The notes: generated by a model not told the origin, from the sequence alone. A stretch of 64,000 bases of DNA from Dehalococcoidia bacterium (GCA_965261885.1 CBDHDY010000039.1:10802-74801), one strand, 5' to 3'; counted from the stretch's first letter, positions 2,759 through 54,719 are shown. Program-made: numbers and translations.

Positions 2759-2888
2759 TAGTAGCCCGAAATCATTGTAATGATGGGTTGATTGGTACGG
2801 GGCCGTTGCCCGGACAAACCTGGCTCACGGAATCGATGGCCAAGCAATCCGGCATTTCACCTATCATTTCAAGGATGTTGGTCTACTA
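2759..2888. mobile_element. MITE family A copy 2
   Basis: TAGTAGCCCGAAATCATTGTAATG ... CATTTCAAGGATGTTGGTCTACTA. Homologous to 67-184. Confidence 0.75.
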
Positions 2889-5360: not shown

Positions 5361-5886
5361 GGGCCATCGGTTGGACAAGATCAAGCCACAATTAAGTGGG
5401 CCTCCTGCACTCCTTCGTATGATACCAAGACCCGTGCTGATCTTCACCGAGTGATCCTGGAGTATCTGCGTGAACTCGCGGCTGGTGAACTGGCTTCCCT
5501 GGTCGGTGTTGAATACGTCGGGCGTTCCCTGGTTCAGGGCCTCACCCAGCGCCTCGGCACCAAAGCCGGTCTCAAGAGTGTTGGACAATCGCCAGGCCAC
5601 CACGTACCGGCTGTGCCAGTCCATGATGGCCACCAGGTACAGGAATCCCCTGGCCATGGGCAGGTAGGTGATGTCAGCCGCCCACACCTGGTTCGCCCCG
5701 GGTGATCGTCAGATCCCTCAGCAGGTAGGGATAGACCCAGCGTCCCGCCGCTGGTAGGCTGGTGCGAGGCTGCCGGTAGATAGCCCGCAGTCCCACATCA
5801 GTCTCATGAGCCGCTGCACCCGCTTCCGGCTTACCGGCATGCCCTGCCGCTCCAGCGAAGCCTTCATCCGCCTGGAACCGTAGAAA
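5361..5886 (-). pseudogene. IS3-family transposase remnant (integrase core) with right end
   Basis: YGSRRM...SRKRVQRLMR, WAADITYLPMARGFLYLVAIMDWHSRYVVAW, FNTDQGSQFTS. Internally deleted, frameshifted, and cut by IS1182 at 5887. Confidence 0.85.
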
Positions 5887-11239: not shown

Positions 11240-12205
11240 TTCACATTGTCTTGGAGCGGTTCGGCATCGTCCTGAGCCGCAGCGGTTGCTTGAACTACCT
11301 GGACCGTCTGGGGTTTGCCTTCAAGCGGCCCAAGAAGCGTCTGCTCAAGGCTGATGGGGCCAAGCGGGAGTCCTTCGTGGCGGAGTACGCCGCCCTGACG
11401 GAGGAGGCGCGGCGGTCCGGGGCCAGGATTTTCTCTGCCGACGGGGCCCACTTCCGGGCGGACGCCGAACTTCGGGGCAAGTGGGTGCTGAGAGGAGAAC
11501 CTGCTCTGGTGGACTCGACCAGCCCGCGTTACGGCGAGAAGGCCAGCTATTACTCTGCGGTGTGCTTGGAGAGTGGAGAGTGGAGAGGTGGAGTGGATGG
11601 AACTGGATGGCAACAGCAACTCAGGCACCTCGGCGGAATTCCTGTCCCAGTTGCGGCAGGGGTGCGCCGGGCCGCTGAGGGTCATCTGGGACAATGCTCC
11701 GGGGCATGGGGGCGAGGCGGTGCGGGAGTACCTGCGGACGCCGGGTCTGGAGTTGCGGCTGGTGAACCCCCGTTTTCACGAGGGCAAGCTCTGCCGGGGT
11801 ACAGCCCGGACTTCAATGCCGATGAGGCTGTCCGGGATTGAGCGAGGGAGGAGGCCACTGGCGATCTGTGCCTGGGAAGCAGGGAGGCAGTGCGGGAGAG
11901 GGTCGGCAAATTCCTGGCCGGGCTGACCAGCCGGAAAGACGAGGTGAGACGCCGCTGCCGGACGGTCCTGCAATCACGGGCGGAATCACTCCTAAACCAA
12001 TACCACGGTGGGATGTGCATTTCGGGATCTTGAAGATGACCGAAAGGGCTCCACGGCTCCTCATATCAACTTTAGGCCCCAACTGGGGTCGCCCGCTACA
12101 GTGCGGTCTAGAAATATGTACATCTCACCTTGGCTTCAGTTTAGGAGGCTCCCTGCCGGAATCACCACACCCGGCAAATGCGCATCCCACCTTGGCTTTG
12201 GTTTA
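11240..12205 (+). pseudogene. Decayed IS630 lineage B copy (3' two-thirds), interrupted by a MITE
   Basis: Protein fragments nearly identical to 2886-3998 (RLGFAFKRPKKRLLKAD, VDSTSPRYGEKASYYSAVCLE). Right TIR ends at 12205. Several frameshifts. Confidence 0.85.
11993..12143. mobile_element. MITE family B copy 2 (151 bp) inserted in the IS630-B copy
   Basis: TAAACCAATACCACGGTGGGATGTGCAT ... ATGTACATCTCACCTTGGCTTCAGTTTA. Flanks rejoin as CC-TA-GG (TA duplication) and restore the transposase tail. Confidence 0.85.
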
Positions 12206-12306
12206 GTCCCAAGGTTGCGGCTCGGCGCTTTCGGGCCAGACCTCGAGATGAATTAGGTGCCACATCTGTCTGGCCATCGAACTCACGGGTGCCGCAACCG
12301 TCCTGG

Positions 12307-12995
12307 TGTTGTTGTCCAGGGATTGTGTCCCCTTGAATGAAAGGCGGATATGTCACCAGGTTTGGTCGGTGGCGGTCAGTGATGCGGCCAGGGCCTCGGC
12401 CTTGGTTCGATCACTGGCGCTGAGCTTCTTGGTGGGCGGGCTCTCTGCCTTGGCGTACTTTCCGACGGTGTCGCGCGCCATGCCCAGCCTCTGGGCGATG
12501 GCCCGGAGGGAAAGCCCCTGCTCCCTGGCCTGTTGTACTGCCACCCAGCGAGCCTGCTGGGTAGCGGTGGGCGTCCGGCGCAACTGGTGGCGGAGCTGTT
12601 TTGCCTTTCCACCCCTGCCCTTGGTGGCCATGTCTTCGTCGTTGGCCCCGTCCTCATCGGACTATTCAAGGGCGGGCAGGCGTTCCCGTTGGGCCTCGTC
12701 AGGGTGGCTGTTGATCCCACCGTCAGCGCCCCCTGCAGTTCCGGACCGGGAGAGCAGGCGCTGGCTGCGCCCCACAGCGCTGAGGACGGCGGCGGCCCTC
12801 CTGATAATCCACGGCCTCTCCCTGGTACCCGATCATCAGCTCCCCGTGGGCCCGTTCCAGGGCGTCCACCCTGAGGCCTGCATAGCTGGGCCGTGCAACC
12901 CCTGGCAGCAGCTGCAGGACGCGCCGGTGGTATTTCACCGTGTTGTCCCGGGCCACCTTCCGGGTGTCTTTGATGCAGATGACCCCGGTCAGCGC
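12307..12995 (-). mobile_element. IS481-like/ISNCY 3' fragment with right end
   Basis: TGTTGTTGTCCAGGGA end. ARDNTVKYHRRVLQLLPG and QQAREQGLSLRAIAQRLGMARDTVGKY match the 16233-17899 copy. Confidence 0.8.
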
Positions 12996-13423
12996 CAGTC
13001 GTGGGGCCGACCCACGACTCTTGGACTGCAGGGCAGGACGTACAGATGGCCGCGCCGCCGCCAGCGGGCATTGCAGGTGATGAGGTCGACGGGGGCCTCG
13101 GCTGGCAATTCGACCATTCGCAACGGATTGCCCCGGTCGCAGCCAACCCAGTGGGACTTGTAATCGGACCCAAAAGCGGTCGGTCCTCCAAGGGCCTCGT
13201 ACTGCTGCCCCAGCAGGCAGGGCCAGTCCCTTGGCACGTCATCACTCTCCTTTTCTGGGGGCGCCGAGGACAGGAAACGGGTCCTCCTCAGACAGATATT
13301 CTGAACTGTGTTGGGGATTCCCCCTATCTGGTATTGACTGGGGTATTGCAGATGCCCCGCGGCGACGATTGACAGGAGTAATCTGCAAGTAATGAGGCTG
13401 GGCCAATCATTTCTCCGTCGGCG

Positions 13424-14030
13424 TTGACACCAACCGCCTTGCTGGTGGCTGCCTGTGGCCATCTGGGCGAGGCCACGCATACTCCGCGCCCGACCTGCAC
13501 CCCCTATCCGACCTTCACGAGGGAGCCACATCCGGGAACAAGGACGCGCACAGAGGCGACCACGAGGGTGGCCGTTTCTGGCGAGTTAATTGAAATGGAG
13601 GGTGAGAGGGACTGGTTCTCCGGTACGGCACTGTCATATGCAGAGAAAGGGACCAGCGATTTCAGGCAAGGATGTTACCTTGCAGCGATGGAGAACCTCG
13701 AAGAAGCCCAACGACACCGGGGTGAACCGTGTTCTGTCGCACCTGTTGAATACCCGGTGCCCCCAGGCAATGGGGGATGCTGAAATCGCACTTTCTGTGC
13801 CGCCCCATCTTTCCATGCCACCCCATGAGGGAGGGGGATATCACACCGAGTCGGAGGCAACCTCCATTCTGGCGGGTTGTCACATGGACGAGGGCGACCA
13901 CAGGCTGGCATACGCGCACGCAGAGGCGGCTCCCAACGTCGCCATAACCAGTGGCCACGCGATTGATGGCATTGCGTTACTGGTGGAAACCCGCGGTCTG
14001 GCCAAGTCGCTGGCGGACTCACAGAGTTGA
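13424..14030 (+). pseudogene. Decayed lipoprotein with helical (TPR-like) C-terminal part
   Basis: LLVAACG lipobox-like motif, Pro/Thr linker, then alpha-helical segments split over two frames (13424-13783, 13590-14030). Confidence 0.35.
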
Positions 14031-14429
14031 TGAGAGGGCGGTTCCCGCTCATGGTGCGGGCGCGGGTCTTGCTTGGGGGAACCTGCCACCAAGATAGTGC
14101 CACGTTCCCATCGCGTTGTGGACTGATCGCAGGCTGACTGCGTACCTGGGGAGTAACGATGACCGGCGGGTTCGAGGAGGGGATTCGGGCATTGCCACAG
14201 CCCATCGACGGCCAACTTCCAAGCCCGTGGATGACGGCGATGAGGAATCCGCTGGAAGGGGAAGCGTTCATTGTCGGCAGGAATCAACGCAACTGTTACC
14301 CAGCCAAGGGAATTTCTCACGAGAGGCACACAGACGGCCTGTTCAATCGCAGCGGTGAGAGCTGCCGTGGGCTGTGCGATGAGAATACCAGGGGCGGACC
14401 ATCCCCGACCCGGCGGAACACCGACGATC

Positions 14430-16190
14430 TCATGGCCCGCCTCAATCAGCAGGGCGTTTACAACACCCTGGAAATCAGCCTGGAAATAAACCTGGAAATC
14501 ACTCTGGAAATCAGCCTGGAAACGAACGCAGTCTGCTTCTCCACCCCCATGAGCGCGGACCTGCGAGATCGGGCAAACGTCGCCGGTGCAAGAAAGGGAG
14601 AGGAGATATTCCGCTATCTGCTGTCGGAAATCGGCCCCGCCGGTGCCGATTGCCCACGGGGCCGGCACCGTGGGACAGCTCTCCTCCCCCCTGAAGACCA
14701 ACCGGCTGCAGGTCCCCCGCTCCGCGGTTGATATATGCGACATGCAGACGGAGCGGCATCTCATCATACCCATTCCCAGCCTGGCACCGCCCGCGTAGAA
14801 TGCGTGGTCACGGTGGCGGGATGGATATTTGGATGGAGTCGCGGTTCGTGTCCGGGACAATCTGGCATCCTGACCTCTGTGGTGCCCTTCATTTGGTGGA
14901 CCTCCAAGTCAGCTCCCCCAGCATGTTAGGTGCCACAGCATCCCTCATCCGGTTGAAACGCAATGGCGTATCAGGCAGGGGGCATCTCATGCCCCCGTTG
15001 CTCGTTTCTCAGGCTGGGTGCGGTGGCAGGTGTCCCGCCCACCGCTTTGCAGGGGGGTCCCCTGTTGAGGCACCCGACGCTCGCTGCCATCCTCTCTCTC
15101 TCCTCCTCGCCCTGGTGGCCTGCTCCGGCTCCCCGGCCGCTGGTCCCACGGCCACCGGGGCCACCGGGGCCACCGGCCCTGCCTCCGCTGAACCCCAACG
15201 GCTGTCCGGGCCGGCCAGCCTCAGACCCAGACGGACCGGCCGCCGGCGCTGGCCCCGACCGGAAGGACGCCCATACCGGCGTTGAACACCAGGCAGATAT
15301 CGGCGACGCAGCAGGCCCAGGTGTCCGAGATCAAGACGCGGCATGCGCCCACGTCCGAACGCGTTACCCCGCCGCCACCGTTGCCGGCTTTCCCACCACC
15401 GCCCGCGGTTGCGTATCCGACCCTCGCACCACCCACGCTCGTAACGAGTACTGCCCGCCAGGACTTTGGGCCCCGATATCATCTCCACGCACGGAGGCAA
15501 CGGCCTGAGATTCGTCGAGAGCGGCGTCGACCGCACGCCCGGGGAAGACCGGCAATACAAGAGCGTTTAGAGCCAACATACCGCCGGGTGCGTTGACTGG
15601 CAGGTGGACTTGCCCGGTGTCGAGCCGGCGGGGACGGCCGACATCGAGGTCGTTTCCGAGCTCTTCGGCCCCAATGACGAGGTCCTCGAGCATTTGGCAA
15701 TGGAATTTGAACTCAGCCGGGCACGGCTCACAGCTGGATTTCTTTGGGTCACGGATGGGTGGAACCAGGCAACCGGGCCACCGGCGAATGTTGGATTGAG
15801 GTTCCCGTTGATGGAGGACTGGCCGCGGCTGGAGGTCTTGAACATCGTGGCTGGAATGGCATCCATATCCACACCGGTTTATGAATTCGCCATCGCCTGC
15901 GGGGAGAACTGCCGGAGGGAGGTTGCGCGCCGAGCGGGACCGCGGCCGTGCGGCAGTTCGCCGAGGCCTGCGCCGACATCAGGGTTGCCGCCCCAACCAT
16001 GGGCGGGTTGGACGCCATGCCAGCGCACCTCGCCGGGTGGCGGGGACGGTTGGTATCCCCGCCGGGTCTGGGGGAATATCACTCAGCGATCATGGACCTC
16101 CACCGGGGGCGCCAGTCGCCGTACCGTGCCCTGCTGGGCGCAGGCAGGGAAGGAGGTGATTGACCGGAACACCGCAACCAGATAATACTC
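14430..16190 (+). repeat. Copy 1 of a ~1.8-2 kb diverged direct duplication (decayed unknown gene plus lipoprotein gene)
   Basis: Collinear similarity to 18225-20215, e.g. CCCGCCTCA(A/T)TCAGCAGG, ATGTTAGGTGCCACAGCATCCCTCATCCG, and FAEACADIRV(A/T)AP in both. Many frameshifts. Confidence 0.8.
14468..14527 (+). repeat. Tandem 12-bp repeat x5 (CTGGAAAT/CNNNN)
   Basis: CTGGAAATCAGC CTGGAAATAAAC CTGGAAATCACT CTGGAAATCAGC CTGGAAACGAAC, read as LEIS-LEIN-LEIT-LEIS-LETN. Confidence 0.9.
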
Positions 16191-16232
16191 AGATCACCAT
16201 GCCCCAGGGTGGGTCAATGACCGTGTAAATCC

Positions 16233-17899
16233 TGTTGATGGTCTACGATTCGGTCACCTGCTAACTGATCAGCGACTATGTCATCCCCATGAGGGATGTG
16301 AAGTTGAATCAGCAGGAAAAGGCCAGGATTCAAGTGCTTAACTGCGTTCTGGAATACCAACTTCCCATCGCCCAGGCTGCCGAGATCATGGGAGTCAGTG
16401 AACGCCAGATCCAGCGAATCCTCGCTGCCTACCGCAGGGACGGCGCCGCCGCACTGGCCCATGGGAACCGGGGACGCCATCCTCACAACGCCGTCCCGAA
16501 TCGGCCGCCGCTGCCGTGGTGAAGCTGGCCAGCAACGGCTACGCCGGGGCAAACCACAGCCACTTCACTGAGCTGCTGCGAGAGCGCGAGGGCATTGACC
16601 TGAGCCGTTCCACGGTGCGCCGCATCCTAGTCAGGGCCGGCCTGGGCAGTCCCCCGCAGCACCGTTTCCGGCGCAGACGCGTCCCCCAGGGGGGCATGCT
16701 GGTGCAGATCGACGGCAGCCAGCACCCTTGGCTGGAGGACCGGGGACCCAAGTTGAAGCTGCTAAACGCTGTGGACGACGCCACCGGCACCGTGTCCCAG
16801 GCCGTCTTCCGCATCACCGAGGACACCAGGGGCTACCTGGTGCTCCTGGTGCTCCTGGAGGGACTGGTCCGGCAGTGGGGCATTCCCCTAGCCATCTACA
16901 GAGACCGCCACTCCGCCTTCAGGTACAACGCCCGTCACAAGCCGGTGCCGGTCGAGACCACCCAGTTCGCCCGGGTGATGCGGGATATGGGCATAGAGCA
17001 GATATTCGCCCTCACTCCACAGGCCAAGGGACGGGTAGAGCGGATGCTGGAGACCTTCCAGGACCGGCTGGTAACCGAGTTGCGCCTGGCCGGGGCCAGC
17101 ACCATCGGTGAGGCCAGCCCGGTCCTGCAGGAATTTCTGCCCCGGTTCAACGCTCGCTTCGCCGTGGCGGCGGAGCAACCGGAGACGGCCCACCGTCCGT
17201 TGCCGGACGAGTTGTCCCTAACCGCCACTATCTGTTCAAGGACACCCGCAAGGTAGCCCGGGACAACACGGTGAAGTATCAGTGGCGGGTGCTACAACTC
17301 CTGCCTGGCGAGGAACGGCCCAGCTACTCCGGTCTCCGGGTGGATGTCCTAGAACGGGCCGACGGGGAGCTCCTGCTCCGGTACCTGGGAGAGGCCGTCG
17401 ATTTGCAGGAGGGGCCGCCGCCCTCATCGGCGCTGTGGGGAGCAGGCTCCGGCTGCTCCTCGGATCCTGAACAGGAGAACGCCGTCGGCGTGGCCATCGG
17501 CCACCTGAACCAGGCTCAGCAGGCTCTTCTGCAACCCTGGAACCGGCCGATGAAGACGACGCCAACGTCAAGAGTGTAGCCACCAGACGCAGGGGCGGCA
17601 AGGAGAAACCGCTTCGCCGCCAGTTGCATCAGACGCCCACGGCGACCCAGCAGGCCCACTGGGAGGCGGTGCAGTACGCCAGGGAGCAGGGCTTGTCCCT
17701 CCGGGCCATCTCCCGGACCTTGGGGGTCGCCAAAAACACCGTGAAGAAATACATGTCTGCTGAAAGCCCGCCCACCAAGAAACTCAGTGCCAAGGAGCGT
17801 GCCAAGGCCGAGGCTATGGCTTCATCGCTGATCGTCGCAGACTATCCGGGGTGACATTTTCGCTTTCAATTGTGGGGACGGAATCGCTAGACAACAACA
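16233..17899 (+). mobile_element. IS481-like/ISNCY element, full length but frameshifted
   Basis: TGT...ACA ends (TGTTGATGGTCTACGATT / AATCGCTAGACAACAACA). Transposase split across 16289-16522, 16516-17256, 17271-17579 and 17624-17854. Confidence 0.85.
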
Positions 17900-18075
17900 T
17901 TTCGACAAACCCGATAATCCGGGACTTCTATCAACGGCAGCTGGCCGCCGGCAAGCCCAAGAAACTTGTCCTGACTGCCTGTATGCGGAAGCTCCTCACC
18001 ATACTCACTGCATGCCGAAAAACGGTCAGGCGTGGAATCCAGGAGCCCCGGCTCCTTGACACCCAAGACAGCTGC
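17900..18075 (+). pseudogene. IS110 transposase 3' fragment
   Basis: NPIIRDFYQRQLAAGKPKKLVLTACMRKLLTIL is the IS110/IS116 C-terminal motif. Confidence 0.8.
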
Positions 18076-18224
18076 TTTCTGCTGAACTATTGGGCGGCCA
18101 TTTATCCTGATCTTCGACAGCCGCTTGTCAGCGACTACCCGCCCGCACGGAACAATTTACCTCCGCCCTTTACAGAATACCGGGGGCAGACCTTCCCATT
18201 CCCGGTGAGGCACCGACGGTCTTT

Positions 18225-20215
18225 CGGCCCGCCTCATTCAGCAGGACTTTCACAACATCCAAGAAACCAGCGTGGTTCGCCTCTCCACTCCGATGAGCGA
18301 TGACCTGCGGGACCGGACGAGCGTCCCCTGTGCAAAGAACGGAGAGAGGATATTCCGCTGTCTGCTGTCGGAGATCGCCCCGCCAGTCCTGATTGCTCAC
18401 GGGGCCGGCATCGTGGCGCGGCTTTCCCCCACCCTGAAAACCAGCCGGCTGCGGGTCCCTCGCTCCGCAGATGATATATGGGACTCGCAGACGGAGCGGT
18501 ATATCGTCATCCGCGTTCCCAGCCTGGCACCGTCCGAGTTCAGTGCGGGACCATGGCGGTGGGGTCAATATCCGGATGGAGTCGCGGTCCGTGTCCGCTA
18601 CAAGCCGGCACCCTGATCGCTTCGGTGCCTCACATTCAGCAGAACCCCAGCGCAACTCCCCCAGTGGGATGTTAGGTGCCACAGCATCCCTCATCCGATC
18701 GAAGCGGAGTAGCGTATCAGGCAACGAGCATCTCCTACCCCCTTGCTCATTTTTCCGGCCGGGTGCCGTGGCAAGTGTCCCGCCTGCCGTTCTGCAAGGG
18801 GGTTCCCTGTTGAGGCACCCGGCACTCGCTGCCATCTTCCCTCTTCCTCGCCCTGATGGCCTGCTCCGGCTCCCCTTCCGCTGATCCAAGGCCACCGAGT
18901 CTGCCTCCACTGAATCCCCAACGGCTATCCGGGCCTACCCGCCTCAGACCCTGACAGACCAGCCGCTGGCGCTGGCCCCGGCCATGGGGACGCCCATGCC
19001 TTCGTTGAACACCGGGCAGATATCAGCGACGCCGCAGGCCTGTGTTTCCGGGACCAGGACGCGGTATGCGCCCACGTCAGGGAGCGTTGCCCCGCCGCGG
19101 CTACTGCCTGCCATCGCTGCCGTCGCCACTGTTGCCGACTTTCCCACCACCGCCGGCCATTGCGCTTCCGACCTTCGCACCACCCGCGTTGGCGGCACCG
19201 GCCCCCGGTCCGCCAACGCCCGCCACGAGTCCTGTCCGCCGGGACCTCCTGGGACCCTCATCGTCCCTGCGCACGGAGGCAAACGCCCTGGGATTCCCCA
19301 GGAGCTGCGTTGAGCGCGAGCCCAGGGAAAACCGGCAATGAGAGAGCGGTTTCAGTCAGAAGACCGCCAGGCAGGTTGACCGGCAGGTGGACTTGCCGGG
19401 TGTCGGGCCGGCGGAGACGGCCGGAATCGAGTCGTTTCCGGGCTGTTCGGCCCCGATGACGGGGTCCCCGACCATTTGGCAATGGATTTTGAACTCAACC
19501 CGGGCACGACTTGCAGCTGGATTTCCCTGGAGCACGGATGAGGGGAGCCAGGCAACCGGGCCTCCAGCGAATACTGGATTGAGGTTTCCGTTGAAGGTGA
19601 ACTGGTAGCGGCTGGACGATTTGAAGTCGTGGCAGAAATGGCATCCATAGCCCCGTCGGCTTATGAATCTGCCGTTGCCTGCGGGGAACTGCTGGAAGGA
19701 ACGGAGGACGTTGACATCCGTGAATGGGTGGCCATACGGCGCAGGCCTTGTAAGCGCCGTCCGGAGTAGCCGCCTGCTGGCACGCCCAGGTGGCCCGGTT
19801 CGCCCTGCAGACCGGCCCGGGCCTCAGCCGCCGCACCCGGGAAGCCGGTCTCCAAAAGATGGAGGCCCTGGCCGACATTAGCCGGGGGTGAGGGAAACCC
19901 TGCTGCTCAGCGGGTGCCTCGGCGAGATTGATGTTTGGTCGGCCGGGGAGTTCGTGGCCGCCAGGGAAGGGCCGGTGGAAGGTTGCGCGCAGACCGGGAC
20001 CGGGACCGTGCAGCAGTTCGCCGAAGCCTGCGCCGACATCAGGGTCACTGCCCCGGCCATGGGTGGACTGGACGCCAGGCCGGCACACCTCGTCGAGTTG
20101 CGGGGAAGGCTGGTACCGCCACCGGGTCTGGGGGGGAATATCACCCGGCGGTCATGTACCTCTGCCGCGAGGAGCAGGAGGTGGACACGGGCAACCCGCA
20201 GGATTCAGGCATTTT
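18225..20215 (+). repeat. Copy 2 of the diverged direct duplication
   Basis: Collinear with 14430-16190. Has a single unit where copy 1 has the 12-bp x5 expansion. Confidence 0.8.
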
Positions 20216-20397
20216 GACCCGGCCGGCCCTGGTGGAATCGGCAAATGCCCTTGACAGGGACTACCCGGGGACATCGCTCCGGTGGGGTTGCCCGGGCGGA
20301 CGATCAAGCCATTCATTCAATGAGGAAATGTCGTTTGGGATACGGAATTACGGAAATTGGCGGGCGCCGGCCCGGCGGCCATCACCCTCCGGGCCTC

Positions 20398-20600
20398 TCA
20401 GACCGGGACGTAGCGGAACTCGGCCACGGGGCGGACCGGACGGTGCAACGGCAACAGCTCGTCACGGGTGGGCGGCAAGAGCCACATCATCACCCGGACC
20501 GTGTCCCGAAACGGCATCCTGCAAGCCTCTCCACCTGGATCGACCCACGATGTACACCCCGACATATAGCCGGTCTTGAGGCAGTTCCGGTTGCCGTATT
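20398..20600 (-). pseudogene. IS1182 5' remnant
   Basis: MPFRDTVRVMMWLLPPTRDELLPLHRPVRPVAEF aligns with the N-terminus of the 6026-7519 transposase. Confidence 0.75.
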
Positions 20601-20745
20601 CCTGGCCTGTTCCAGGGGGAGGACGCGGCCGGACCGGGAGTTGCACCCCTGGATGTGGGCGGAGGACCGGGAGCGGCGCGTGAAAGCCGGGGTGCCTGCC
20701 GGCCCAGGGGCAACCGCTGAACTCCCACCAGTCATGGCCTTGCGC
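20578..20745 (+). pseudogene. Probable IS701 transposase fragment
   Basis: VAVFLACSRGRTRPDRELHPWMWAEDRERRVKAGVP resembles the IS701 motif VGVFLAY...DRELYLP..W..DRERCR.AG.P. Confidence 0.45.
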
Positions 20746-21410
20746 AATACGGCCTCTGCCAAAGTCTCCCGGCTGATTGATGCAGACTCCCGGGGGCGGG
20801 CGTCCGGCGATTCCATGTCAATTCCATGTCCCGCATGTCGTCCCGGATGTTCGGGACCGGGTCGTCGGGGAACTCCCTGGATCCACAGCGAAAACGGTCC
20901 TGTCCGGCTTCAAACCAGGATCCGGGGGGGGCGGATGACATCAGGTCAGCGATCCGATGACACGCAGTCAGCCGCTCCTTTTGACGGGATGTGTGGGCCA
21001 CCTGGATTTCCAGTATTCTATGATAGTGTCCGCACGTGTGCGAACGCACACCGCTTTGAACTGCTCGATGACACCTGAACACATGTGCGACTGACCCTCG
21101 CCGGCGCGGCATCCGCATCTCGCGTCTGCCCCGCTGGTTGACCACGTCGCGCCTCCTGCCACGCTGTCGGCGCTCGCAGGCAATCCCCATTTCCGGCGAA
21201 TCCGGATACTCGCCGGATGTCTCCCTGATGGAATCCATGCGCCTGCCGGCGCTACCCATGGGTTTGCACCCGTCAATCACCAGGACACCGGCCTCGACTC
21301 CGGGCCGTCCGCCCGGCCAACCCTGTCATAAAGGGACTGATTTGAGCATAGCCAGAACTATGCCTACCGCAGTATCACGCCGCCATGCCAGAACCGGGGG
21401 CCAGTGAAAG

Positions 21411-21640
21411 ATGAGCCGAACACACGCCCGAGTGTCGGTGGCCAACGAAACCTCTGCCGACGATCTGGAGGCTCAGCGCCGGGTGCTGGTCGACTTGTGA
21501 GAAGGTATTCGAGGACGTGTGCAGTGGGGCTCCTGGAACCGGCCAAGGTTGATTCGCCTGAAGGACGGTCTAGCCCCGGAGGCCATTTGAAAGTGGCGGC
21601 GCTTGAACACCTGGATTGGTCACTGCGAGTCGTGGCCTTG
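21411..21640 (+). pseudogene. Serine resolvase N-terminal remnant
   Basis: HARVS...DLEAQRRVL...NRPRL..LKDGLAPG..LKVAALEHL is a degenerate YARVS / RP.L / LDRL pattern. Internal stop and frameshift. Confidence 0.6.
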
Positions 21641-21650
21641 ATGCGTGATG

Positions 21651-24600
21651 CTAAATTCCTCCCAGCGCCTCTCGCTCTTCTTCCTCTTCATTGGCGCCCA
21701 CGATGGCATCGTCCAGTTGTCGGAGCAAGGTCTTGGCCCAGCGACTCACCTCTGGCTTCGAATGTTGGAGGAGCCTGCCAATTGGCTCTTTGTAGAGGGT
21801 GTAGTAGTTAGTTCTTGACCCGAACCAACCGAAGGTTCGGATATTGCTCTCTACGGCTTGCCGGACGTCATCGCGGTCCCCGAACTCATTGAGCAGGTGG
21901 GCCATGACTGGATGCAGCGATCGCTCTGAGGCCGCGGTCTCCTGCGTTGTGAGGACTGGTACGAGCTTCGCGGTGTATGCCGGTGCACGTTCGGGGTGGG
22001 CGTGGCACCAGGCGAACAAGGTGGACTCCGGCAGGCTTAGAATCACGGGATTAGGCTTGCGTTCAATAGCGTATTGGTCTCCCAAGATAGAGGTCAAACG
22101 TGAAGCTCTACTTTGGTCGGAGACGATTACTTGGCCAACTAGCGGCCATGCAACCTCGGGAAAGCGCGACAGCAGATCAGAAAGGATCGTCTTTCCTAGG
22201 AAGCCGCAGTCGAAAGCCTCTACATTTGCCAACGCCTTTGCCAGAGCCAACGCCGTATTACTGGCGCAAGAGTCCTGCCTGCCCTTCCGAAGCGTCTCGT
22301 CCATGATTTGCTCAAAGCGATATTGCGATAAATTCCAGTCCCGTGCCGGTTGCCATCTTGTAGAGTTCTCCGCGAGCTTCAAGACTTGAGGATGAAGACC
22401 ATCCAGTTTCTTGGGCGAATTGAAGGCATATTTGTGCATAAGATCCACCGCTGCGGTGAATCCTTCGGCGCTGTGTTCAAGCAGCGTATCGAATAGAGGG
22501 GCAATCTCCCGAGCTGGAATCTCGGCAATTACCCAAGCATGTAGCCATTCGCTCAATCGCAGCGGAGGCAACACACCACCTTTAAGGGCGTCAATTGCCA
22601 GCTGAACATCGGAGGCGTCGATGCTGCTCCTCCCCCAAATCTGAGGCAGTGCCGAAGCAAGTTCGCGTGACCGAGCCGCTCTCTGCTTGAATGCAACCAC
22701 TACGTGCGGATGGTTCGTAGCCAGATGGGTGATGAATCCTGACAGCAAGTCATGGTTACGCTCACCCTCAGGGGCTTCTACAACAGCCTCTATAAATGGC
22801 TCCAACCATTCCAGTGGTGAGCTGGCAAGGTCGGCGACGGCGGCTCCGAATTGATAGGCCATTCTCTGCTGGCCACGGCTGAGTTGAGGCAAGGACGCCG
22901 CAAGAGTTGGTGGCTGCTGCAACAACTCGGCGGCCAATCCGTGCACCGCTTCAACTCGACATTGTTCCAGTAGACGGAAATCTGGTTCCCTGCTCTCAAG
23001 GTCGCCCCACGACATCTCCGTCACCGTCGAACGTATACGCGCCTCCAAGCCCCTAGGCTGCAACTCCTTTAACAGCTCTCTGACCCGCTCGGTTAATTCA
23101 GGGGTCATGTTCTCAGCATCAAAGGCAATAACAGCACGCACGCTCGTCATTCCCTCTGGCCAATAATCCTTCGCAGCACTCACTTCTGAGACAACTTTTT
23201 TCGCTGTATCAATGAACCCCTCACGGATCAGAATGGGCAGAGAATTACCAAGCCCTGAACGAGCAGAAATTCCAGCCAGGTCATCGTTCAAGGCGAACTG
23301 CGCGAGCCGTGTCGCACACCCATCTATGTAATTGACCACCTCTTCTTTGGTGTCCGGGCACCAAGATACCAGTGCTGAGCTAGACCCCTGGGACTCCGGG
23401 CCCAGCATCCGCTCAAAGGTACCTATCTCGCAGCCGCTGATCAGAGCATCACAAATGATCTCGCGCCGAGCAGGGTCGGCAGAGCCCGCGGCCTCATCCA
23501 GGAAAGAGAGTCGAGCAACGCCGTCGGCCGCCGTGCCGCCTAGGAGCATGGGGAAAAGCCCCTTGAATTTGCCGAGAGCGCCGCTTTCCCAACGAAGGTG
23601 CCAGAGGTCACTCTTCGCTGTAAGCCTGGATACAATCTCGTTTTCGTCGGAAGCGACGCGCAGCAAGAGACGCGCGCCCTCCTCAAATGTGTGGACATGG
23701 AAGGCGATCTTCTCCAAGGCCTGGACAAGGGCTCGTCGCGCGTCACTTCTGATTTCAGACAAGTCTTGGACATTTCCGAGTGATCGTTCTATCTGGTCTG
23801 CGACTGCCTCCGGGTCTACCTCGGCAAGGGCAGACCAGACCTCGGTGTAGGCTAACGGAGCGGTCCGTCCCAAACCGTCGAAGGGACCACCACGCCGGCA
23901 AACATGGGAGACCACCTTCCGGGAGACCTCGGTAGTGTTGAGCAGGGCCAGTTGTTTAGCCGCCAATGTCTTGAGACCAGGGCTGATGTCGCCAGACAAC
24001 ACCCTCTCCCAAGTGCTGGCAGGCCACTCTTTCCATTGGCGCTCCGCCAGTTTCATTGCGACCGGCCGTGGTTGGAGAGTGACAAATCTCCCTCGCCGCT
24101 GGACGACCCCTCGGTCGACCAGTTGGGCGACAGCGGCGTATAAGTCCTCGGTGCTGAGGCTGCGTCCCAAGCTGGCGATCTCGCTGAGTTGACCGTCAGC
24201 CTGGGGGCCTACGTCAACCAGACCGAACACAGCCAGCAGCGCCGCCGACTTGCGCAGCAACTCAGGGTCTCGGGGACTTCGTCCCAAGACGAAGGTGTCG
24301 ACGAAATGGTCGTCTGTGGCGTGGGCGACGGGTCTTGATTCGCTCCACGTCTTCCCGACGCGGACCGCAACCTCCGGGAAGCCCTTGGAAAAATGCTCAA
24401 GCCGACTCCGGTCCTCGTAAGGAAGGCCCGAGGAGACATGGCTGATGATGCCTTCTGTGACGGGGGGCGGAGCCTCCTCGATCCTCAATGTGGTCCCGTC
24501 CAGAGTTCCAATGGGAATTTCGTTGTCGATGGTCACCAACGACAGATGGCTACCCTGGTGCAAAACCATGGCTGAGAGCCCTTGATGGGACTCAGGACCG

Positions 24601-25718
24601 CAGTTGTCGACGACCACGACGGCGCGCTGGGGCGTAACTGCCAGGGTCTGAACAACCTCGCTTATAGCCGCGTAGCTGGTCTCAGTCTCGATGGCGTATA
24701 TGATCAGGTCGCTGGCAGAATTGCTTGCCTCATCTTCACCCTCCGTAGCTCTGAGGGCTTCAAGCACTAGACGGGACTTGCCGACGCCAGACAATCCGAC
24801 TAAGCGCAGGATTTGTCGGGGCGTCTCTACTATATCGCGGAGGCGGTCGCGCAAAGAGGACAAGCGCGCATCTTCCACCCACGGGGATTGATCGTGTTCG
24901 GCGCGGCCAGCCCAGTGGTTCCAGGAGCGGAAGGGACCGATGGTTCCGTGTGTCTGTTCCTTCACCCATGTGGCGACTGCAGGGTGGCTATTTACCCACG
25001 TGGCGATCTGTTCAGCGTCCCAAAAGTCGACCTGCTCGTCTTTGATGGTCATGCCGGTATAGCGGAGTTCTTTGCGAATGCGGGCTTTTCGGTGATTGAT
25101 TTCCCTCCCACTGTAGGGGTGCGCGCAGAGCATGATGTAGTGGCCGCCAATCTCGAGGGCAGAAAATATCATGTCCTTGACTGCGCCCTTGATCAGGACG
25201 TCCTTAGCTGCCGCTCCCGGCGATATCTTGCCGGCCTTCAACTGAAAGTGGTTGAGCCGGGAAGGAAGGAAGGACGTGCGCTCCGGGCCAGCCGTCCATG
25301 TGATGCTCCCGTCCTCCCCACCGTCTGGGACATGAATATTGCTAGCCACCCGAATGCCATCAGCCGGGAGACTGTGGGTTTGGGCTTCGGCACTCAGCAG
25401 CTTCCTCAGGAGCAGTGGCAGGTCCCGTTCTCGCAGAACCGAAATGTGGCCTCCGGTTACCTCAAACGGGCCGGATCCGAAAGCGATGACTGGTCGAGGC
25501 ATACCACCCCCCAGAGTGATAATCCCGGCGGGATTGGCCTCCAACAACCGCAACAGATTTATAACTGAGGCGGCGGGCTTTACGGTTCCGGCTTCGTACT
25601 TAGTGAAGGAGCTGGGGCCGCCTCCGATGAGTTCACCAGCCTCCACCTGTGATAGGCCCAAGCGTTCCCGAATGGAGCGGATCTCACTAGGTGCGAGTTC
25701 TTGTCTAATCCTAGACAT
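21651..25718 (-). CDS. XRE/MqsA-like HTH + PD-(D/E)xK-like nuclease + STAND-type P-loop NTPase + long helical repeat region (Avs/NLR-like defence protein)
   Basis: N-terminal IRSIRERLGLSQVEAGELIGGGPSSFTKYEAG, then PDGGEDG...HFQLKAG, Walker A GLSGVGKS, Walker B VVVVDNC, and ~850 aa alpha-helical C-terminus. ATG at 25718 with GAGG RBS; ~1355 aa. Confidence 0.8.
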   Translation of the reverse strand: MSRIRQELAPSEIRSIRERLGLSQVEAGELIGGGPSSFTKYEAGTVKPAASVINLLRLLEANPAGIITLGGGMPRPVIAFGSGPFEVTGGHISVLRERDLPLLLRKLLSAEAQTHSLPADGIRVASNIHVPDGGEDGSITWTAGPERTSFLPSRLNHFQLKAGKISPGAAAKDVLIKGAVKDMIFSALEIGGHYIMLCAHPYSGREINHRKARIRKELRYTGMTIKDEQVDFWDAEQIATWVNSHPAVATWVKEQTHGTIGPFRSWNHWAGRAEHDQSPWVEDARLSSLRDRLRDIVETPRQILRLVGLSGVGKSRLVLEALRATEGEDEASNSASDLIIYAIETETSYAAISEVVQTLAVTPQRAVVVVDNCGPESHQGLSAMVLHQGSHLSLVTIDNEIPIGTLDGTTLRIEEAPPPVTEGIISHVSSGLPYEDRSRLEHFSKGFPEVAVRVGKTWSESRPVAHATDDHFVDTFVLGRSPRDPELLRKSAALLAVFGLVDVGPQADGQLSEIASLGRSLSTEDLYAAVAQLVDRGVVQRRGRFVTLQPRPVAMKLAERQWKEWPASTWERVLSGDISPGLKTLAAKQLALLNTTEVSRKVVSHVCRRGGPFDGLGRTAPLAYTEVWSALAEVDPEAVADQIERSLGNVQDLSEIRSDARRALVQALEKIAFHVHTFEEGARLLLRVASDENEIVSRLTAKSDLWHLRWESGALGKFKGLFPMLLGGTAADGVARLSFLDEAAGSADPARREIICDALISGCEIGTFERMLGPESQGSSSALVSWCPDTKEEVVNYIDGCATRLAQFALNDDLAGISARSGLGNSLPILIREGFIDTAKKVVSEVSAAKDYWPEGMTSVRAVIAFDAENMTPELTERVRELLKELQPRGLEARIRSTVTEMSWGDLESREPDFRLLEQCRVEAVHGLAAELLQQPPTLAASLPQLSRGQQRMAYQFGAAVADLASSPLEWLEPFIEAVVEAPEGERNHDLLSGFITHLATNHPHVVVAFKQRAARSRELASALPQIWGRSSIDASDVQLAIDALKGGVLPPLRLSEWLHAWVIAEIPAREIAPLFDTLLEHSAEGFTAAVDLMHKYAFNSPKKLDGLHPQVLKLAENSTRWQPARDWNLSQYRFEQIMDETLRKGRQDSCASNTALALAKALANVEAFDCGFLGKTILSDLLSRFPEVAWPLVGQVIVSDQSRASRLTSILGDQYAIERKPNPVILSLPESTLFAWCHAHPERAPAYTAKLVPVLTTQETAASERSLHPVMAHLLNEFGDRDDVRQAVESNIRTFGWFGSRTNYYTLYKEPIGRLLQHSKPEVSRWAKTLLRQLDDAIVGANEEEEEREALGGI

Positions 25719-25752
25719 ATTGACCTCTAAGATGTAATGCACTATGGTATCA

Positions 25753-25763
25753 ACCATTATGGT
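25753..25763. promoter_or_regulatory. Palindrome ACCATTATGGT, candidate operator in the divergent promoter region
   Basis: Perfect 5-1-5 palindrome ~35 bp upstream of the STAND gene start, with a partial repeat ACTATGGT at 25741-25748. Confidence 0.3.
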
Positions 25764-25949
25764 CATATTCGCTGAGCAAAAGCAACGCTCTTAGAGACGA
25801 TGGGCGTGAATGGCTGGGCTGCGGGGACTTAGCTCGGCGTTGGGAACGAGGATTGACGAGTTGAACCCTGTGAGTCGACACTGAATGCTGGCCATTTGAC
25901 CACACGGGGTTCTGGGCTCAGGCGGCCAATCAACTCAGCGGTGAATGAC

Positions 25950-28900
25950 ATGGAAAACCCGTTCTACGACCGGCCGATACTGAACTCGCCCTATGATTAC
26001 CCCTACCGGCACTGGGAGCTGGACGAGACTGGGCAGCCTACCCAGCAGGTCATTGAGAGCCGACGTGGGGCCGAGTTCATTACGCCCATTCCCAAGCCGA
26101 GGCAGCGGGGAAGGGCGCGCGGTGGACGCCAGGAGCAACTGGTCTTCGACGAAGGGCAGGGTCTGTCCACGGCAGAGCAACAGTATGACGTTACTGCCGC
26201 CGTCAACGAAATTCGCCGGTACGTCGACCAGTGGCGCGACATCCCCAACCCGCGGGACTGGGGTGTGACGCCGGAGACGGCCCTGCTGCTCCAGCACTGG
26301 CGGCACCACAAGTTCAGCCATTACCGTCCCTTCTTCTGCCAGGTCGAAGCCGTTGAGACGTTAATCTGGCTGACCGAGGTCGCGCCGCGGCTCGGGCAGG
26401 GGGAAAGGCTGGCACTCCAGCGTCTGGAGAGCGCCAGCCTGGAGGCGAACCCGGAACTGTTGCGGGTCGCGCTGAAGCTGGCAACCGGGGCGGGCAAGAC
26501 CACGGTGATGGCCATGATCATCGCGTGGCAGACAATCAACGCCGTCCGGCATCCCAACAGCCGGAGGTTCACGCGGGGCTTCCTGGTGGTCACCCCCGGA
26601 ATTACCATCCGGGACCGGCTGCGGGTGCTGCAGCCTAACGACCCCGACAGCTACTACGCCAGCAGGGAACTGGTGCCCACCGATATGCTGGGCGACCTGC
26701 AGCGGGCCAGGATAGTCATCACCAACTATCATGGCCTCCGCCCCAGGGAGCGATTGTCGATATCCAGCGGCGGGAGGGACTTGTTGCAAGGGCCGGGCGA
26801 GCCCATCGAGACCGTGGAGTCCGAGGGCCAGATGATGCAGCGGGTGATGCCCGAACTGATGGCCCTCAAGAACATCATGGTCCTAAACGACGAGGGCCAC
26901 CATTGCTATCGCCAAAAGCCCGGTGAAGATGACGAGGGCCCTCTGACTGGTGAGGACAAGCGGGAGGCAGACCAGAACACCGAGGAAGCCAGGGTGTGGC
27001 TCTCCGGGCTGGAGATGGTCAAGAGGAAACTTGGTGTACGTCAAGTGGTGGACCTGTCGGCCACGCCCTTCTTCCTGCGTGGCTCCGGCTACGCGGAGGG
27101 CACTCTGTTCCCCTGGACCGCCAGCGACTTCTCGCTCATGGACGCCATCGAATCCGGGATCGTCAAGCTCCCGCGGGTTCCGGTGGCGGACAACATCCCG
27201 GGAGCCGACGTACCGGTGTTCCGAAACCTGTGGGAGCACATCCGCAAGGACATGCCTCGCGCGGGAAGGGGCCGGTCGGGTGACCTGGACCCACTGGACC
27301 TTCCCACGCCGTTACAGACTGCCCTAGAGGCCCTGTACGGCCACTACGAGAAGACTTTCAATGAGTGGGAGGCGGACGGCACTCCCTGTCCACCCTGTTT
27401 CATTGTCGTTTGCAACAACACGGCCACATCCAAGCTGGTCTACGACTATATATCAGGGTTCGAGCGCACCAACGAGGACGGCACGACCTCGGTTGTTAAC
27501 GGGAGACTCGCACTGTTTCGGAACTTCGATGAATACAACAACCGCTACTCCGTTCCGCGCACATTGCTGATCGACAGCCATCAGTTGGAGTCCGGGGAAA
27601 AACTCAGCGATGACTTCCGCCGCGCCGCTGCCGATCTGATAGAGCGGTTTCGGCGGGAACGCCAGGAGCGCACTGGAAATCGCGAGGAGGCCGACAAGAT
27701 CTCGGAGCAGGAACTCCTGCGCGAAGCAATGAACACGGTCGGCAAGGAAGGGCGGTTAGGACAGAACATACGCTGCGTGGTGTCTGTGTCCATGCTGACC
27801 GAGGGGTGGGACGCCAGCACCGTAACCCACGTCCTGGGAGTCCGGGCCTTTGGAACGCAGCTCTTGTGCGAGCAGGTGGTGGGTCGGGCCTTGAGGCGCC
27901 AGTCCTACGAGTTGAACGAGGGCAACAAATTCGACGTCGAGTACGCCGACGTGCTGGGTATTCCCTTCGACTTCACCGCCCGTCCGGTCGTGGTAGGCCC
28001 GGGCAAGCCGCGGCAGACGGTGCAGGTGAGGGCGATGCGGCCCGAGCGGGACCACCTCGAGATCACGTTCCCGAGAGTAGCCGGCTACCGGGAGGATCCA
28101 CCCAAAGAGGACTTGGTCGCCAATTTCACCGGTGACTCACGGCTGGACTTGACGCCAGACCTGGTGGGGCCAACACAGACCAGGAATGAAGGCATTATCG
28201 GCGAGGGAGTGGATCTGAACTTGGTACATACCGGCGACCTGCGCATGTCGACACTGGTGCTGCACCTGACAAAGCGGTTGCTGGAAACCAAGTGGCGGGA
28301 TCCCAACGAGGAGATGAAGCTGCACCTGTTCGGCAAGCTGCGGAACGTGGTCAAGGAGTGGCTGGACAACTATCTGGACTGCAGGGGTGGGACCTATCCG
28401 GCGCAGCTGATGTACCAGTCGCTGGCGGACATGGCCTGCAACCGCATCACCGCCGCCATCACCAGCAGGTACGGCGAGCGGTCCGTCAAGGCGCTGCTGG
28501 ACTCGTTCAACGCCACCGGCTCAACTCGCAACGTGAACTTCACCACCTCGCGGGAGGGATTGTGGGCCACCGACGCCCGCAGGTGCCACGTTAACTATGT
28601 TGTGCTGGACAGCGACTGGGAGGCCGAGTTCTGCAGGGTGGTGGAGTCGCACCCCTCCGTAAGGGCCTACGTTAAGAACCACAACCTGGGCCTGGAGGTG
28701 CCGTACCTGTATGGCTCCACGCCCCGGCGCTATTTCCCCGACTTTATTCTGCTGGTGAATGAAGGGAACGAAGACCCGCTCCACCTTATCGTCGAGATCA
28801 AGGGTTACCGGGGCGAGGACGCCAAGGAAAAGAAGAACACCATGGAAGCCTACTGGCTTCCGGGTGTGAACGCCCTCGGCAGCTACGGTCGGTGGGCCTT

Positions 28901-32458: not shown

Positions 32459-33826
32459 ATGATGCTTTACCGACCATTTGCTGAACGACTTGACGATGTT
32501 TCTCCGGAGGAACTCGATCGGCTCAAGGGGGTTCACGAGGGGTGGTACGTAGAATACAAGGAAAAACTTGTCTCCAATAGGGACTTGGCCAAGAGCCTGT
32601 CGGCATTCGCCAACCAGTATGGTGGCTGGTTGTTCTTGGGTGTCAAGGAGGATGCCCAAGATAATGTAGCGGCTAGCTTTCCAGGAATCCCTGATTCAGA
32701 AATACAGAGCGTCTTAGATTCACTAAGAAACTCGGCCAAAGATTTGTTGAACCCCACCGTCTATTATAATGTTAGGAAATTTGAAGGCCCTATCGGTTCA
32801 ATAGGACTTCCTGCGGGGCGGACAATAGTAGTAGTCCAAATACCCGAAGGCCCGAACTCACCCTACATTCACAATGACGGGCGAATTTACCGTAGGGTCG
32901 GTGATTCATCTCAACCTACACCCGTAACAGACCGCACGACATTCGACATCTTGGCTCAAAGGGGAGAGGAAGCTAGACTAAGGCTTGCCGAAAGGGTCCT
33001 ATGGAGCCCGGCGATCTCACAGGCTGAAGAGGAACAGTCGTTCCTACACCTTAGCATCCTTTCTGATCCTTACGAAACCATGGGGCACTGGTATAGTGGT
33101 AGTTTTGCAGACTTTTCTACAATTATGCAAGAGTGGACACTGCCTTTCGACAACATTTTTTCTACCTCGAATGGGTTTATTGCGAGGCAAGTAAACCAAA
33201 ATAACCCGATCTATAGGGTATTCACATGGCATTTCGACAGGCAGTGCCACTCGTTTGTAACCATACCTATTCCCACGATTCAGGCATCCTTTGGAGATCC
33301 CATATGGGACAATTATACAATCGGAGACCGTTTTGTAGATGAACTAGTGCGTAGAGGAATAACCTTTTCTAGAATATTAGATTTGAATGCGATAATCGAC
33401 ATTATCGGATCAATAATGAGGCGACATCGGATATTGACAGGAAATGCAAAGGTCACTGGGCCCTTTTACATGAAATCTCATCTGGAAAACATATGGAGAT
33501 GTATCCCATTTGTTGACAATTCTGCGTATTTGCAACATGTATGTAAGTTTGGTTTTCCGGTAATTCAAGACTCGAGCTTAGTCGTACCACCGGGTAAATC
33601 GCTCGAAACTTTCGTAGTGTCTCCAGAGATAGCGACAATACCTTCTGAAGAAGAGCTTCTATCCTATGATGGCCCAATACGTTTGAGTATGATTATCCTT
33701 AATGCCCTTGGAATGCCAATGGAAGTCCTTGCTCGGTCAATAGATGAACTTCACGGAATGGGCAAACGGAGAATGGCTGCTCAGATTAATATTAACGATA
33801 ATCCTGAACCAGGCGTTACATCTTGA
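32459..33826 (+). CDS. AlbA_2 (Schlafen-like) domain protein with uncharacterised C-terminal domain
   Basis: EGWYVEYKE...LAKSLSAFANQYGGWLFLGVKE ... YRRVGDSS. A/T-rich compared with its neighbours. Confidence 0.85.
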   Translation: MMLYRPFAERLDDVSPEELDRLKGVHEGWYVEYKEKLVSNRDLAKSLSAFANQYGGWLFLGVKEDAQDNVAASFPGIPDSEIQSVLDSLRNSAKDLLNPTVYYNVRKFEGPIGSIGLPAGRTIVVVQIPEGPNSPYIHNDGRIYRRVGDSSQPTPVTDRTTFDILAQRGEEARLRLAERVLWSPAISQAEEEQSFLHLSILSDPYETMGHWYSGSFADFSTIMQEWTLPFDNIFSTSNGFIARQVNQNNPIYRVFTWHFDRQCHSFVTIPIPTIQASFGDPIWDNYTIGDRFVDELVRRGITFSRILDLNAIIDIIGSIMRRHRILTGNAKVTGPFYMKSHLENIWRCIPFVDNSAYLQHVCKFGFPVIQDSSLVVPPGKSLETFVVSPEIATIPSEEELLSYDGPIRLSMIILNALGMPMEVLARSIDELHGMGKRRMAAQININDNPEPGVTS

Positions 33827-52339: not shown

Positions 52340-52597
52340 TCCGGCACCTCCTGTACCGGATGATTACTCTTGGGGACCGGCAAAAATAGTCGTCGCCAAC
52401 CGGCAAGACTAATTGTCGTTGATCATTGAGGCTGAGAATGAGCCTCACAGTGCCCCTGGCGGCGCCATGCGGTTTCTGCTTGACGTGGGTTTTGCGTGAG
52501 GAGTTCTGACGAACTCGTGAGTTCAACCTGTTGTGGCGGCGGGTTCCCACACGCGCCACGCAGTCGAGCAGCCGGTTCGGCCCCTGAGGGGCGGGCA

Positions 52598-54000: not shown

Positions 54001-54719
54001 GGTGGTGCCTCCGTGCCGTCGGGCTGCCTGCCTGGGCTTGTCGTGAAACGGAAGGTATCACACGGCACAGGACGTAGGTACTGGGGGACAGCCTTGCCGA
54101 GACGTTGCCACCGTGCAGAAGCGACGGATGGTCCGGCATGTGTAAACGACAGAACCAGTTGATCCACCGCAGGTGCTTGCCTGAGATGAAGACCGCCAGC
54201 TCGCCCACGTCCTTCACGACGAAGCTGTTGATGCGGTTGGTGACCAAGGTCGCGACGCCGATGATCTTGCTCAACTCGGGCAACTGGGCGCCAGGAACCC
54301 GACCAGCTGGCTCGCAAACTATTCGTCCAGCCGCTCACCTGTCTCGTGGGTGAGCGGGATGAGTTCCTCAAGGGTAATGGTAGTGCCTTCCTGGTCTCCA
54401 TATCCGTTGGGTCCCATCCGGCGGGCGCGACCCGTAATCTGCCGGGGAGCATCGGGGTCGTTCAGGTAGCCGATCATCAGGTTGGCCGTCAGTCCGGAAG
54501 CGGCTACAGTGGCACGCGAGGGTGCGCTCTGCGAATTCTCCCGGCGACGCATTTGGAGACTGCTCGTGTAACCTCCAGGCCGCCTCCGGCACGCTGGCCT
54601 GCAGGGTATCGGTCGCCGCAGTAAACGGGTGGCGGGTAGACCGGCCGGATATCAAGTAGATGGTCTGCTCGTTGCACCCGATCAGCCACTTGATCCGCCG
54701 CATGCATGCCAAGGGCGAG

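Follow-up and report, generated by a model that had tools for sequence, protein, structure and literature searches.

A candidate self-repressing Avs8-family receptor with an MqsA-type helix-turn-helix domain in Dehalococcoidia

A 64 000-nucleotide stretch of DNA from a Dehalococcoidia bacterium (GCA_965261885.1 CBDHDY010000039.1:10802-74801; hereafter, the window) harbors, within a defence island, a minus-strand gene (positions 21651..25718) whose 1355-amino acid (aa) product is very probably a distant member of the Avs8 (PD-lambda-4A) family, and which begins with a helix-turn-helix (HTH) domain of the MqsA type. We propose, as the likely overall explanation, that this gene encodes a single-gene, Avs8-family antiphage pattern-recognition receptor that represses its own synthesis, because the protein is homologous to Avs8A over its full length, its nuclease and Walker motifs are intact, the HTH appears to have a single origin, and candidate operators co-occur with the HTH.

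These observations bear on how bacteria hold STAND/NLR receptors with lethal effectors at safe levels. A large, multi-phylum clade in which the receptor carries what appears to be its own repressor domain, together with putative operators, makes this question of control directly testable. In addition, the results correct a widespread misannotation of such proteins as 'MqsA family antitoxin', and extend Avs8, which until now has been studied in enterobacteria alone, to Chloroflexota, Acidobacteriota, Gemmatimonadota, cyanobacteria and others.

Avs8 homology and domain organization

The protein matched the PADLOC model PD-Lambda-4_A (PDLC03991) from aa 85 to 1349 (model positions 4–1274 of 1283; E 7e-89, 297 bits), and a PADLOC search of the whole 4.9-Mb genome returned the same match as the sole such locus. 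A near-canonical Avs8A encoded by a Vibrio plasmid (L076) scored 969 bits against this model, and BLASTP aligned the window protein with it collinearly (aa 85–1340 with 4–1256) at 22% identity. The difference between 297 bits and the 969 bits of near-canonical members indicates that the window protein would be a distant member of the family.

PD-lambda-4A has since been renamed Avs8A. Avs8A combines an N-terminal Mrr-family nuclease with a STAND NTPase, binds HK97 capsid proteins and then degrades double-stranded DNA (dsDNA); its defence activity is lost upon mutation of nuclease residues, and Avs8B is dispensable for Avs8A in E. coli (bioRxiv 10.1101/2025.07.02.662641). Capsid sensing by Avs8 was subsequently confirmed (bioRxiv 10.64898/2026.01.04.697583). 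The window protein resembles Avs8A (E. coli ECOR07; Vassallo et al. 2022) in the order of its parts (a probable nuclease, STAND NTPase and helical sensor), in its homology over the full length and in having identical nuclease motif residues, and a single gene may likewise suffice, Avs8B being dispensable. It differs in overall identity (~22%), in 84 extra N-terminal residues that form the MqsA-type HTH and a linker, and in the conserved candidate operators in its promoter; unlike the two-gene Avs8/PD-lambda-4 systems, the gene has no Avs8B-like neighbor, which is compatible with protein A belonging to the family, given that E. coli does not require Avs8B. With Avs1–4 (AVAST) and other antiviral STAND/NLR receptors, it would share the logic in which a sensor drives NTPase oligomerization and thereby an N-terminal effector.

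The original prediction, which was made from the sequence of the window, had described an NLR/Avs-like protein with an extra MqsA-type HTH. The STAND/Avs-like nature of the protein was borne out; the type is an already described one, namely Avs8, and its architecture nevertheless differs from the described form, because described Avs8A lacks an HTH. Both Avs8 papers present a protein composed of nuclease, NTPase and sensor; in the text searched, neither mentions an HTH, and the survey paper of the two names neither MqsA nor XRE. Literature searches on HTH-fused Avs proteins found no description. In the literature searched, therefore, the HTH-fused Avs8 architecture has not previously been described, although the Avs8 type itself is known.

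The HTH, an XRE-type domain, occupies aa 1–69 (25512..25718, minus strand). It matched Pfam MqsA_antitoxin PF15731 (aa 8–63, E 2e-12), HTH_31 (E 8e-8) and TIGR03830 (59.9 bits), as well as the E. coli MqsA structures in the PDB (3fmy/3gn5/3o9x, E 3e-11), as had been anticipated for aa ~1–70, and it contains five helices in an AlphaFold2 (AF2) model of aa 1–620. As the PDB match spans MqsA residues 67–125, the counterpart of the HTH in MqsA is its C-terminal, DNA-binding domain alone. The toxin-binding Zn-ribbon domain (CxxC...CxxC) is missing, as the matches begin at MqsA residue 67 (profile positions 60–69), and PADLOC and Pfam searches of the downstream open reading frames (ORFs) revealed no MqsR-like neighbor. 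Because both the Zn-ribbon and MqsR are lacking, the protein is not an antitoxin, despite the label 'MqsA family antitoxin' that its relatives carry at NCBI. A flexible linker (aa 70–84; 25467..25511, minus strand), which is poorly conserved and has a predicted local distance difference test score (pLDDT) below 50 at residues 70–78, connects the HTH to the effector domain.

The motifs on which the original prediction was based were all found, namely PDGGEDG (aa 131–137), QLK (aa 159–161), GLSGVGKS (aa 308–315) and VVVVDN (aa 367–372), and in alignments the key positions of these motifs vary little or not at all across the family. The first two lie in the effector domain (aa 85–283; 24870..25466, minus strand), which is probably a restriction endonuclease (REase)-like, Mrr-like nuclease of the PD-(D/E)xK type. 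An AF2 model of this domain alone (aa 80–290, pLDDT 88) displayed a core of alpha-beta-beta-beta-alpha-beta order, in which E111 belongs to the first helix, D132 and D136 come just ahead of beta2, and Q159-x-K161 is part of beta3, a layout that corresponds to that of PD-(D/E)xK enzymes. The residues E111, D132 and D136 (within D132-G-G-x-D136, 25311-25325, minus strand), and Q159 and K161 (Q159-x-K161, 25236-25244, minus strand) are invariant in the HTH-bearing clade and in HTH-less relatives, including the near-canonical Avs8A. When the model was compared with the PDB using Foldseek, the best matches were all of the REase fold but weak (EcoO109I, E 0.043; Cap4, 0.05; Card1, 0.4), and neither Pfam searches with 18 nuclease-domain sequences nor a PDB sequence profile search returned anything above noise. 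The restriction-like nuclease that had been predicted is accordingly supported by its motifs and modeled topology, and the assignment, which we consider probable, draws mainly on homology to the tested domain of Avs8A.

The central region (aa 284–610; 23889..24869, minus strand) is a STAND/NLR-type NTPase with nucleotide-binding, helical and winged-helix parts. It contains the Walker A motif GLSGVGKS (24774-24797, minus strand) and the Walker B motif VVVVDN (24603-24620, minus strand), and residues G308, G311, G313, K314 and D371 are conserved. The AF2 model of aa 1–620, computed from a 37-sequence alignment (pLDDT 83; predicted template modeling score 0.74), matched NRC4, ZAR1, SAMD9, CED-4, Apaf-1 and Dark in the PDB with Foldseek E values of 4e-7 to 1e-5, and Pfam AAA_16 matched the module weakly. 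The predicted P-loop module is thus of the NB-ARC/Apaf-1/CED-4/SAMD9 kind. The remainder of the protein (aa 611–1355; 21654..23888, minus strand) is a putative C-terminal helical sensor, which is homologous to that of Avs8A, as the PADLOC alignment extended to model position 1274/1283 and the BLASTP alignment remained collinear to aa 1340. HTH-less relatives aligned over query positions 1–1200 with E values of 1e-100 to 1e-155.

Distribution of the HTH-bearing form

The same HTH was present in all of the full-length homologues listed, at least 120 in number (53–96% identity, ~1340–1370 aa). An exhaustive phmmer search over 1.84 billion representative sequences yielded 3078 relatives, of which 1162 reached E ≤1e-30. 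The relatives fell into two classes: proteins of ~1340 aa with the N-terminal extension and proteins of ~1260 aa without it. We then analyzed 116 full-length sequences with FastTree, excluding the HTH columns. The HTH-bearing proteins formed a group of 54 rows, 51 of which carry the HTH (SH-like support 98), apart from 60 of the 62 other, HTH-less rows (support 99); the three HTH-less rows inside the group look like truncated gene calls. The near-canonical Vibrio Avs8A and a further sequence, P0186, lay just outside on weak branches (82). These results are consistent with a single acquisition of the HTH in the ancestor of a large clade. The described Avs8 proteins lack the HTH.

A scan of one genome per species retrieved 72 loci. 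They derive from Dehalococcoidia and other Chloroflexota, Alpha- and Gammaproteobacteria, Bryobacterales, Longimicrobiales, Nitrospinota, Binatia and Spirochaetia, together with one cyanobacterium, Bradyrhizobium, Methylocystis and Reyranella. The HTH-bearing proteins hence occur in many phyla, mostly in metagenome-assembled genomes (MAGs), and in contrast to Avs8A they are found mostly in Chloroflexota, Alpha-/Gammaproteobacteria, Acidobacteriota, Gemmatimonadota and other MAGs rather than in enterobacteria. Among 61 related genomes, the gene was present in two, the window's own and one of 36 in the same genus. An all-against-all BLAST of flanking ORFs showed that each flanking family is limited to at most 7 of the 61 loci, and the downstream ORFs had no PADLOC or Pfam match, so that no Avs8B-like or toxin partner was found. 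As judged from these sequence comparisons, the HTH-bearing Avs8 is a mobile single-gene system.

Several individual loci deviate from the common form. One (L036, ~6001–6100) contains an in-frame stop within the HTH (..RTRLGLT*AEAG..), and another (L024, 6001–6260) has two stops at its 5′ end; these damaged copies are either decaying or the product of assembly errors. On plasmid pPR4 of Rhizobium leguminosarum (L081, 1–1059), a gene of ~1370 aa annotated as 'helix-turn-helix transcriptional regulator' lies 63 bp upstream of an HTH-less Avs8-like gene on the same strand; it might represent another giant STAND-like gene with an HTH, arranged in tandem.

Candidate operators in the promoter

We examined 66 upstream regions of HTH-bearing loci, including that of the window, and found a family box, an 11-bp ACC-N5-GGT palindrome that mostly reads ACCATWATGGT, located 35–50 nt upstream of the start codon. 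An exact ACCATWATGGT was present in 29 of the 66 regions and a version with a single mismatch in a further 21, always equally far from the start codon, and the loci that share it belong to different phyla and encode proteins that are 40–55% identical. Within the last 150 nt, the 66 regions contained 66 ACC-N5-GGT boxes, compared with 1.9 in shuffled sequences (maximum 5), and at least one perfect box was present in 52/66. Two perfect boxes occurred in 14 loci with a spacing of 27–30 bp (29–30 bp in 12). The second, downstream box sits over the Shine-Dalgarno sequence and in several loci is the literal MqsA box ACCTTTAAGGT.

Each of the 35 exact ACCATWATGGT copies contained in 1.15 Mb of locus DNA was located upstream of the gene, with ~0.5 expected by chance, and in the 4.9-Mb genome the exact box occurred once, next to the gene's own start. 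A search for a regulon revealed a one-mismatch site at 32613-32623, which is within chance expectation. Among 10 HTH-less relatives, none had the box upstream (0/10). Box 1 often overlaps a −10 element, through the −10-like CATWAT that it contains. In addition, a TTGACA-like hexamer (≥4/6) was located 16–19 nt upstream of the CATWAT of box 1 in 19 of 50 loci, 8 of them perfect, compared with 6/50 and none perfect at a control offset.

In the window, the reading frame is open without interruption over 21651..25766 (minus strand; 1371 codons) and ends with the stop codon at 21651-21653. The start at ATG 25718, which gives the intact 1355-aa protein of the original prediction, is preferred because a Shine-Dalgarno GAGG lies 6–9 nt upstream of it, because homologue N-termini start a few residues ahead of a conserved P-x-E-I-R-x-I-R, and because the 16-codon extension upstream of this ATG holds the conserved, non-coding palindrome, the putative operator. 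Box 1 (putative operator O1, 25753..25763) is the perfect palindrome ACCATAATGGT, 35–45 nt upstream of the ATG, and includes a −10-like CATAAT at 25756-25761. A −35-like hexamer, TTGCTT (25780..25785, minus strand), is 18 nt upstream of CATAAT and weak (3 of 6). Box 2 (putative O2, 25723..25733, minus strand) is 30 bp downstream of box 1 and overlaps the Shine-Dalgarno GAGG; it is the degenerate ATCTTAGAGGT, with one mismatch to ACC-N5-GGT. A close relative of the window locus (L003) has the perfect ACCATAGAGGT at the position of box 2. The window also contains a third half-site after box 1 (25744-25763, ACCATAATGGT-TGAT-ACCAT), which creates an overlapping inverted repeat, ATGGT-N4-ACCAT, and which is absent from L003.

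It was previously reported that MqsA represses its own operon via ACCT-N3-AGGT palindromes, with two sites in E. coli, that the P. putida MqsA site overlaps the ribosome-binding site (RBS), and that Asn97 and Arg101 of MqsA are needed for DNA binding (PMC5422877). The present family resembles MqsA in its homologous HTH and in its boxes, which have the same 11-bp ACC-N5-GGT frame, number up to two in the gene's own promoter and include one over the RBS. It differs in lacking both the Zn-ribbon and MqsR, in the fusion of the HTH to an immune receptor of 1270 residues, and in the inner bases of the box, which are ACCAT-W-ATGGT here. N97 and R101 align with S36 (R36 in most relatives) and the invariant K40, and these altered contact residues fit the differing inner box bases. 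The occurrence across phyla of an operator-like box in the gene's own promoter, together with its absence from the 10 HTH-less relatives, supports the autoregulation that had been suggested, and we consider it quite likely that the gene is repressed by its own HTH.

In three loci from Pseudomonadales MAGs (L021, ~5530–5905; L059; L069), a MazF/PemK-like toxin ORF lies between two ACCATWATGGT boxes and the HTH-Avs8-like gene, its ATG falling within the second box, and an AbrB/MazE-like ORF terminates a short way before the boxes; a remnant is present in L025. In these loci, the boxes seem to control an operon that comprises the mazF-like gene and the receptor.

Proposed mechanism, alternative explanations and flanking DNA

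We hypothesize that in an uninfected cell HTH dimers of the receptor would occupy box 1, which overlaps the −10 element, and, where present, box 2, which lies over the RBS about three helical turns from box 1. Such binding would repress receptor synthesis, so that the level of a nuclease that may be toxic to its own cell would stay low and buffered. Upon infection, the C-terminal sensor would bind a conserved phage protein, for which homology to Avs8 points first to the HK97-fold major capsid protein monomer, although we put forward the capsid protein as the trigger only tentatively. The STAND module would then oligomerize with ATP and gather the N-terminal nuclease domains, which would degrade phage and host dsDNA (abortive infection). 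A further, more speculative and rather doubtful possibility is that sensing is coupled to transcription, such that oligomerization would pull the HTHs off the operators and nuclease firing would also derepress the gene or, in a variant, that the HTH would serve as a decoy, luring phage factors directed against regulators of the MqsA kind, comparable to the WRKY domain of plant RRS1, which is an integrated decoy. If this coupling existed, a burst of new receptor would follow, and one polypeptide would act as sensor, effector and feedback regulator. Other defence systems are restrained by a dedicated repressor, for example by regulators of the CapW/BrxR type; in contrast to these, the presumed repressor here is part of the receptor polypeptide rather than the product of a separate gene.

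Several observations weigh against the explanation of a self-repressing Avs8-family receptor. A perfect box is lacking from the last 150 nt in 14 of the 66 loci, and at the window locus itself box 2 is degenerate and the −35 element poor. The base-contacting N97 and R101 of MqsA are replaced (S36/K40), so that the binding specificity is inferred. Foldseek matches to the nuclease fold are weak, the best having an E value of 0.043, and Pfam and PDB profile searches of the nuclease domain gave only noise. Lastly, the identity to the experimentally studied Avs8A is ~22%, so the trigger may differ.

The HTH might alternatively not be a repressor in the main but belong to the effector or its control, either by tethering or orienting the nuclease on DNA, or as a cis-inhibitory, antitoxin-like module that restrains the nuclease until the sensor is triggered, following the fused toxin-antitoxin logic of CapRel. 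The HTH stands directly ahead of the nuclease on a flexible linker and derives from an antitoxin family, and the MazF-like toxin gene between the boxes and the HTH gene in the three Pseudomonadales loci hints at a toxin-antitoxin ancestry. However, only the DNA-binding domain of MqsA is present, the match starting at residue 67 and the toxin-binding Zn-ribbon being missing, and Avs8A works as a nuclease without any HTH. Moreover, tethering without sequence specificity gives no reason for a specific box to be kept at one position of the gene's own promoter across phyla, and HTH-less relatives do not have that box. We therefore regard control of the effector as improbable and autorepression as the preferred function of the HTH.

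It had also been suggested that the HTH co-regulates both arms of the island. The gene is indeed divergent from a restriction-modification (R-M) operon, as predicted: the res-vapC-mod run starts at 25896 on the plus strand, the boxes lie in the divergent intergenic region of 177 bp, and immediately beside them is a weak promoter-like match on the plus strand (25720-25748, 9 of 12). However, such matches numbered one, compared with 1.4 expected in shuffled sequences, and the distance of the box is fixed relative to the start of the HTH gene, not to any neighbor. Neighbors vary across the 61 loci, none being conserved, and the box is unique in the genome. The same R-M neighbor is retained only in L003, whose nucleotide identity of ~83% over 8.7 kb marks it as just a close relative. 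As a trait of the family, joint control of the R-M arm was accordingly rejected, and repression of res-vapC-mod by the HTH, in addition to that of its own gene, is quite improbable; at the window locus, binding might incidentally affect the divergent promoter of res.

Finally, it is highly improbable that the protein acts like MalT/AfsR as a STAND transcription factor controlled by a ligand, with an inactive nuclease-like domain and no role as an immune receptor, because although an HTH, a STAND NTPase and a helical repeat sensor make up the architecture of known STAND regulators, and databases call relatives antitoxins or regulators, the catalytic-type nuclease residues are invariant throughout the clade and in Avs8A, the protein is homologous over its full length to a proven defence nuclease, the sole exact box in the genome at its own promoter argues against a regulon, no conserved target genes are nearby, and the distribution is patchy and often island-borne.

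With respect to the flanking DNA, the G+C fraction of the receptor gene is 0.56–0.585, compared with ~0.63 in its flanks; like its sparse occurrence in related genomes and its setting in a defence island, this speaks for an accessory gene. Downstream of the gene, positions 12000–21600 of the window (~9.5 kb) are devoid of any convincing long ORF and gave neither Pfam nor PADLOC matches, except for a transposase-like fragment at 16516-17256 with a weak, sub-threshold HTH match, and a scan of positions 11500–26100 against Rfam identified no family. The region includes a diverged direct duplication of ~1.5 kb (14634-16074 and 18377-20134, 77–88% identity) and inverted repeats at 12336-12973 and 17236-17871, and consists either of mobile elements that have decayed or of a non-coding repeat of unknown kind. 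Short pieces of the window (2886-5062, 11299-11992, 52316-52425, 54694-54836, 62575-62957 and 63360-63641) recur at 64–88% identity in loci from Dehalococcoidia MAGs (L020, L028, L029 and L048) and are probably shared copies of insertion sequences or miniature inverted-repeat transposable elements; their recurrence in these MAGs fits the window genome being a relative of the Dehalococcoidia.

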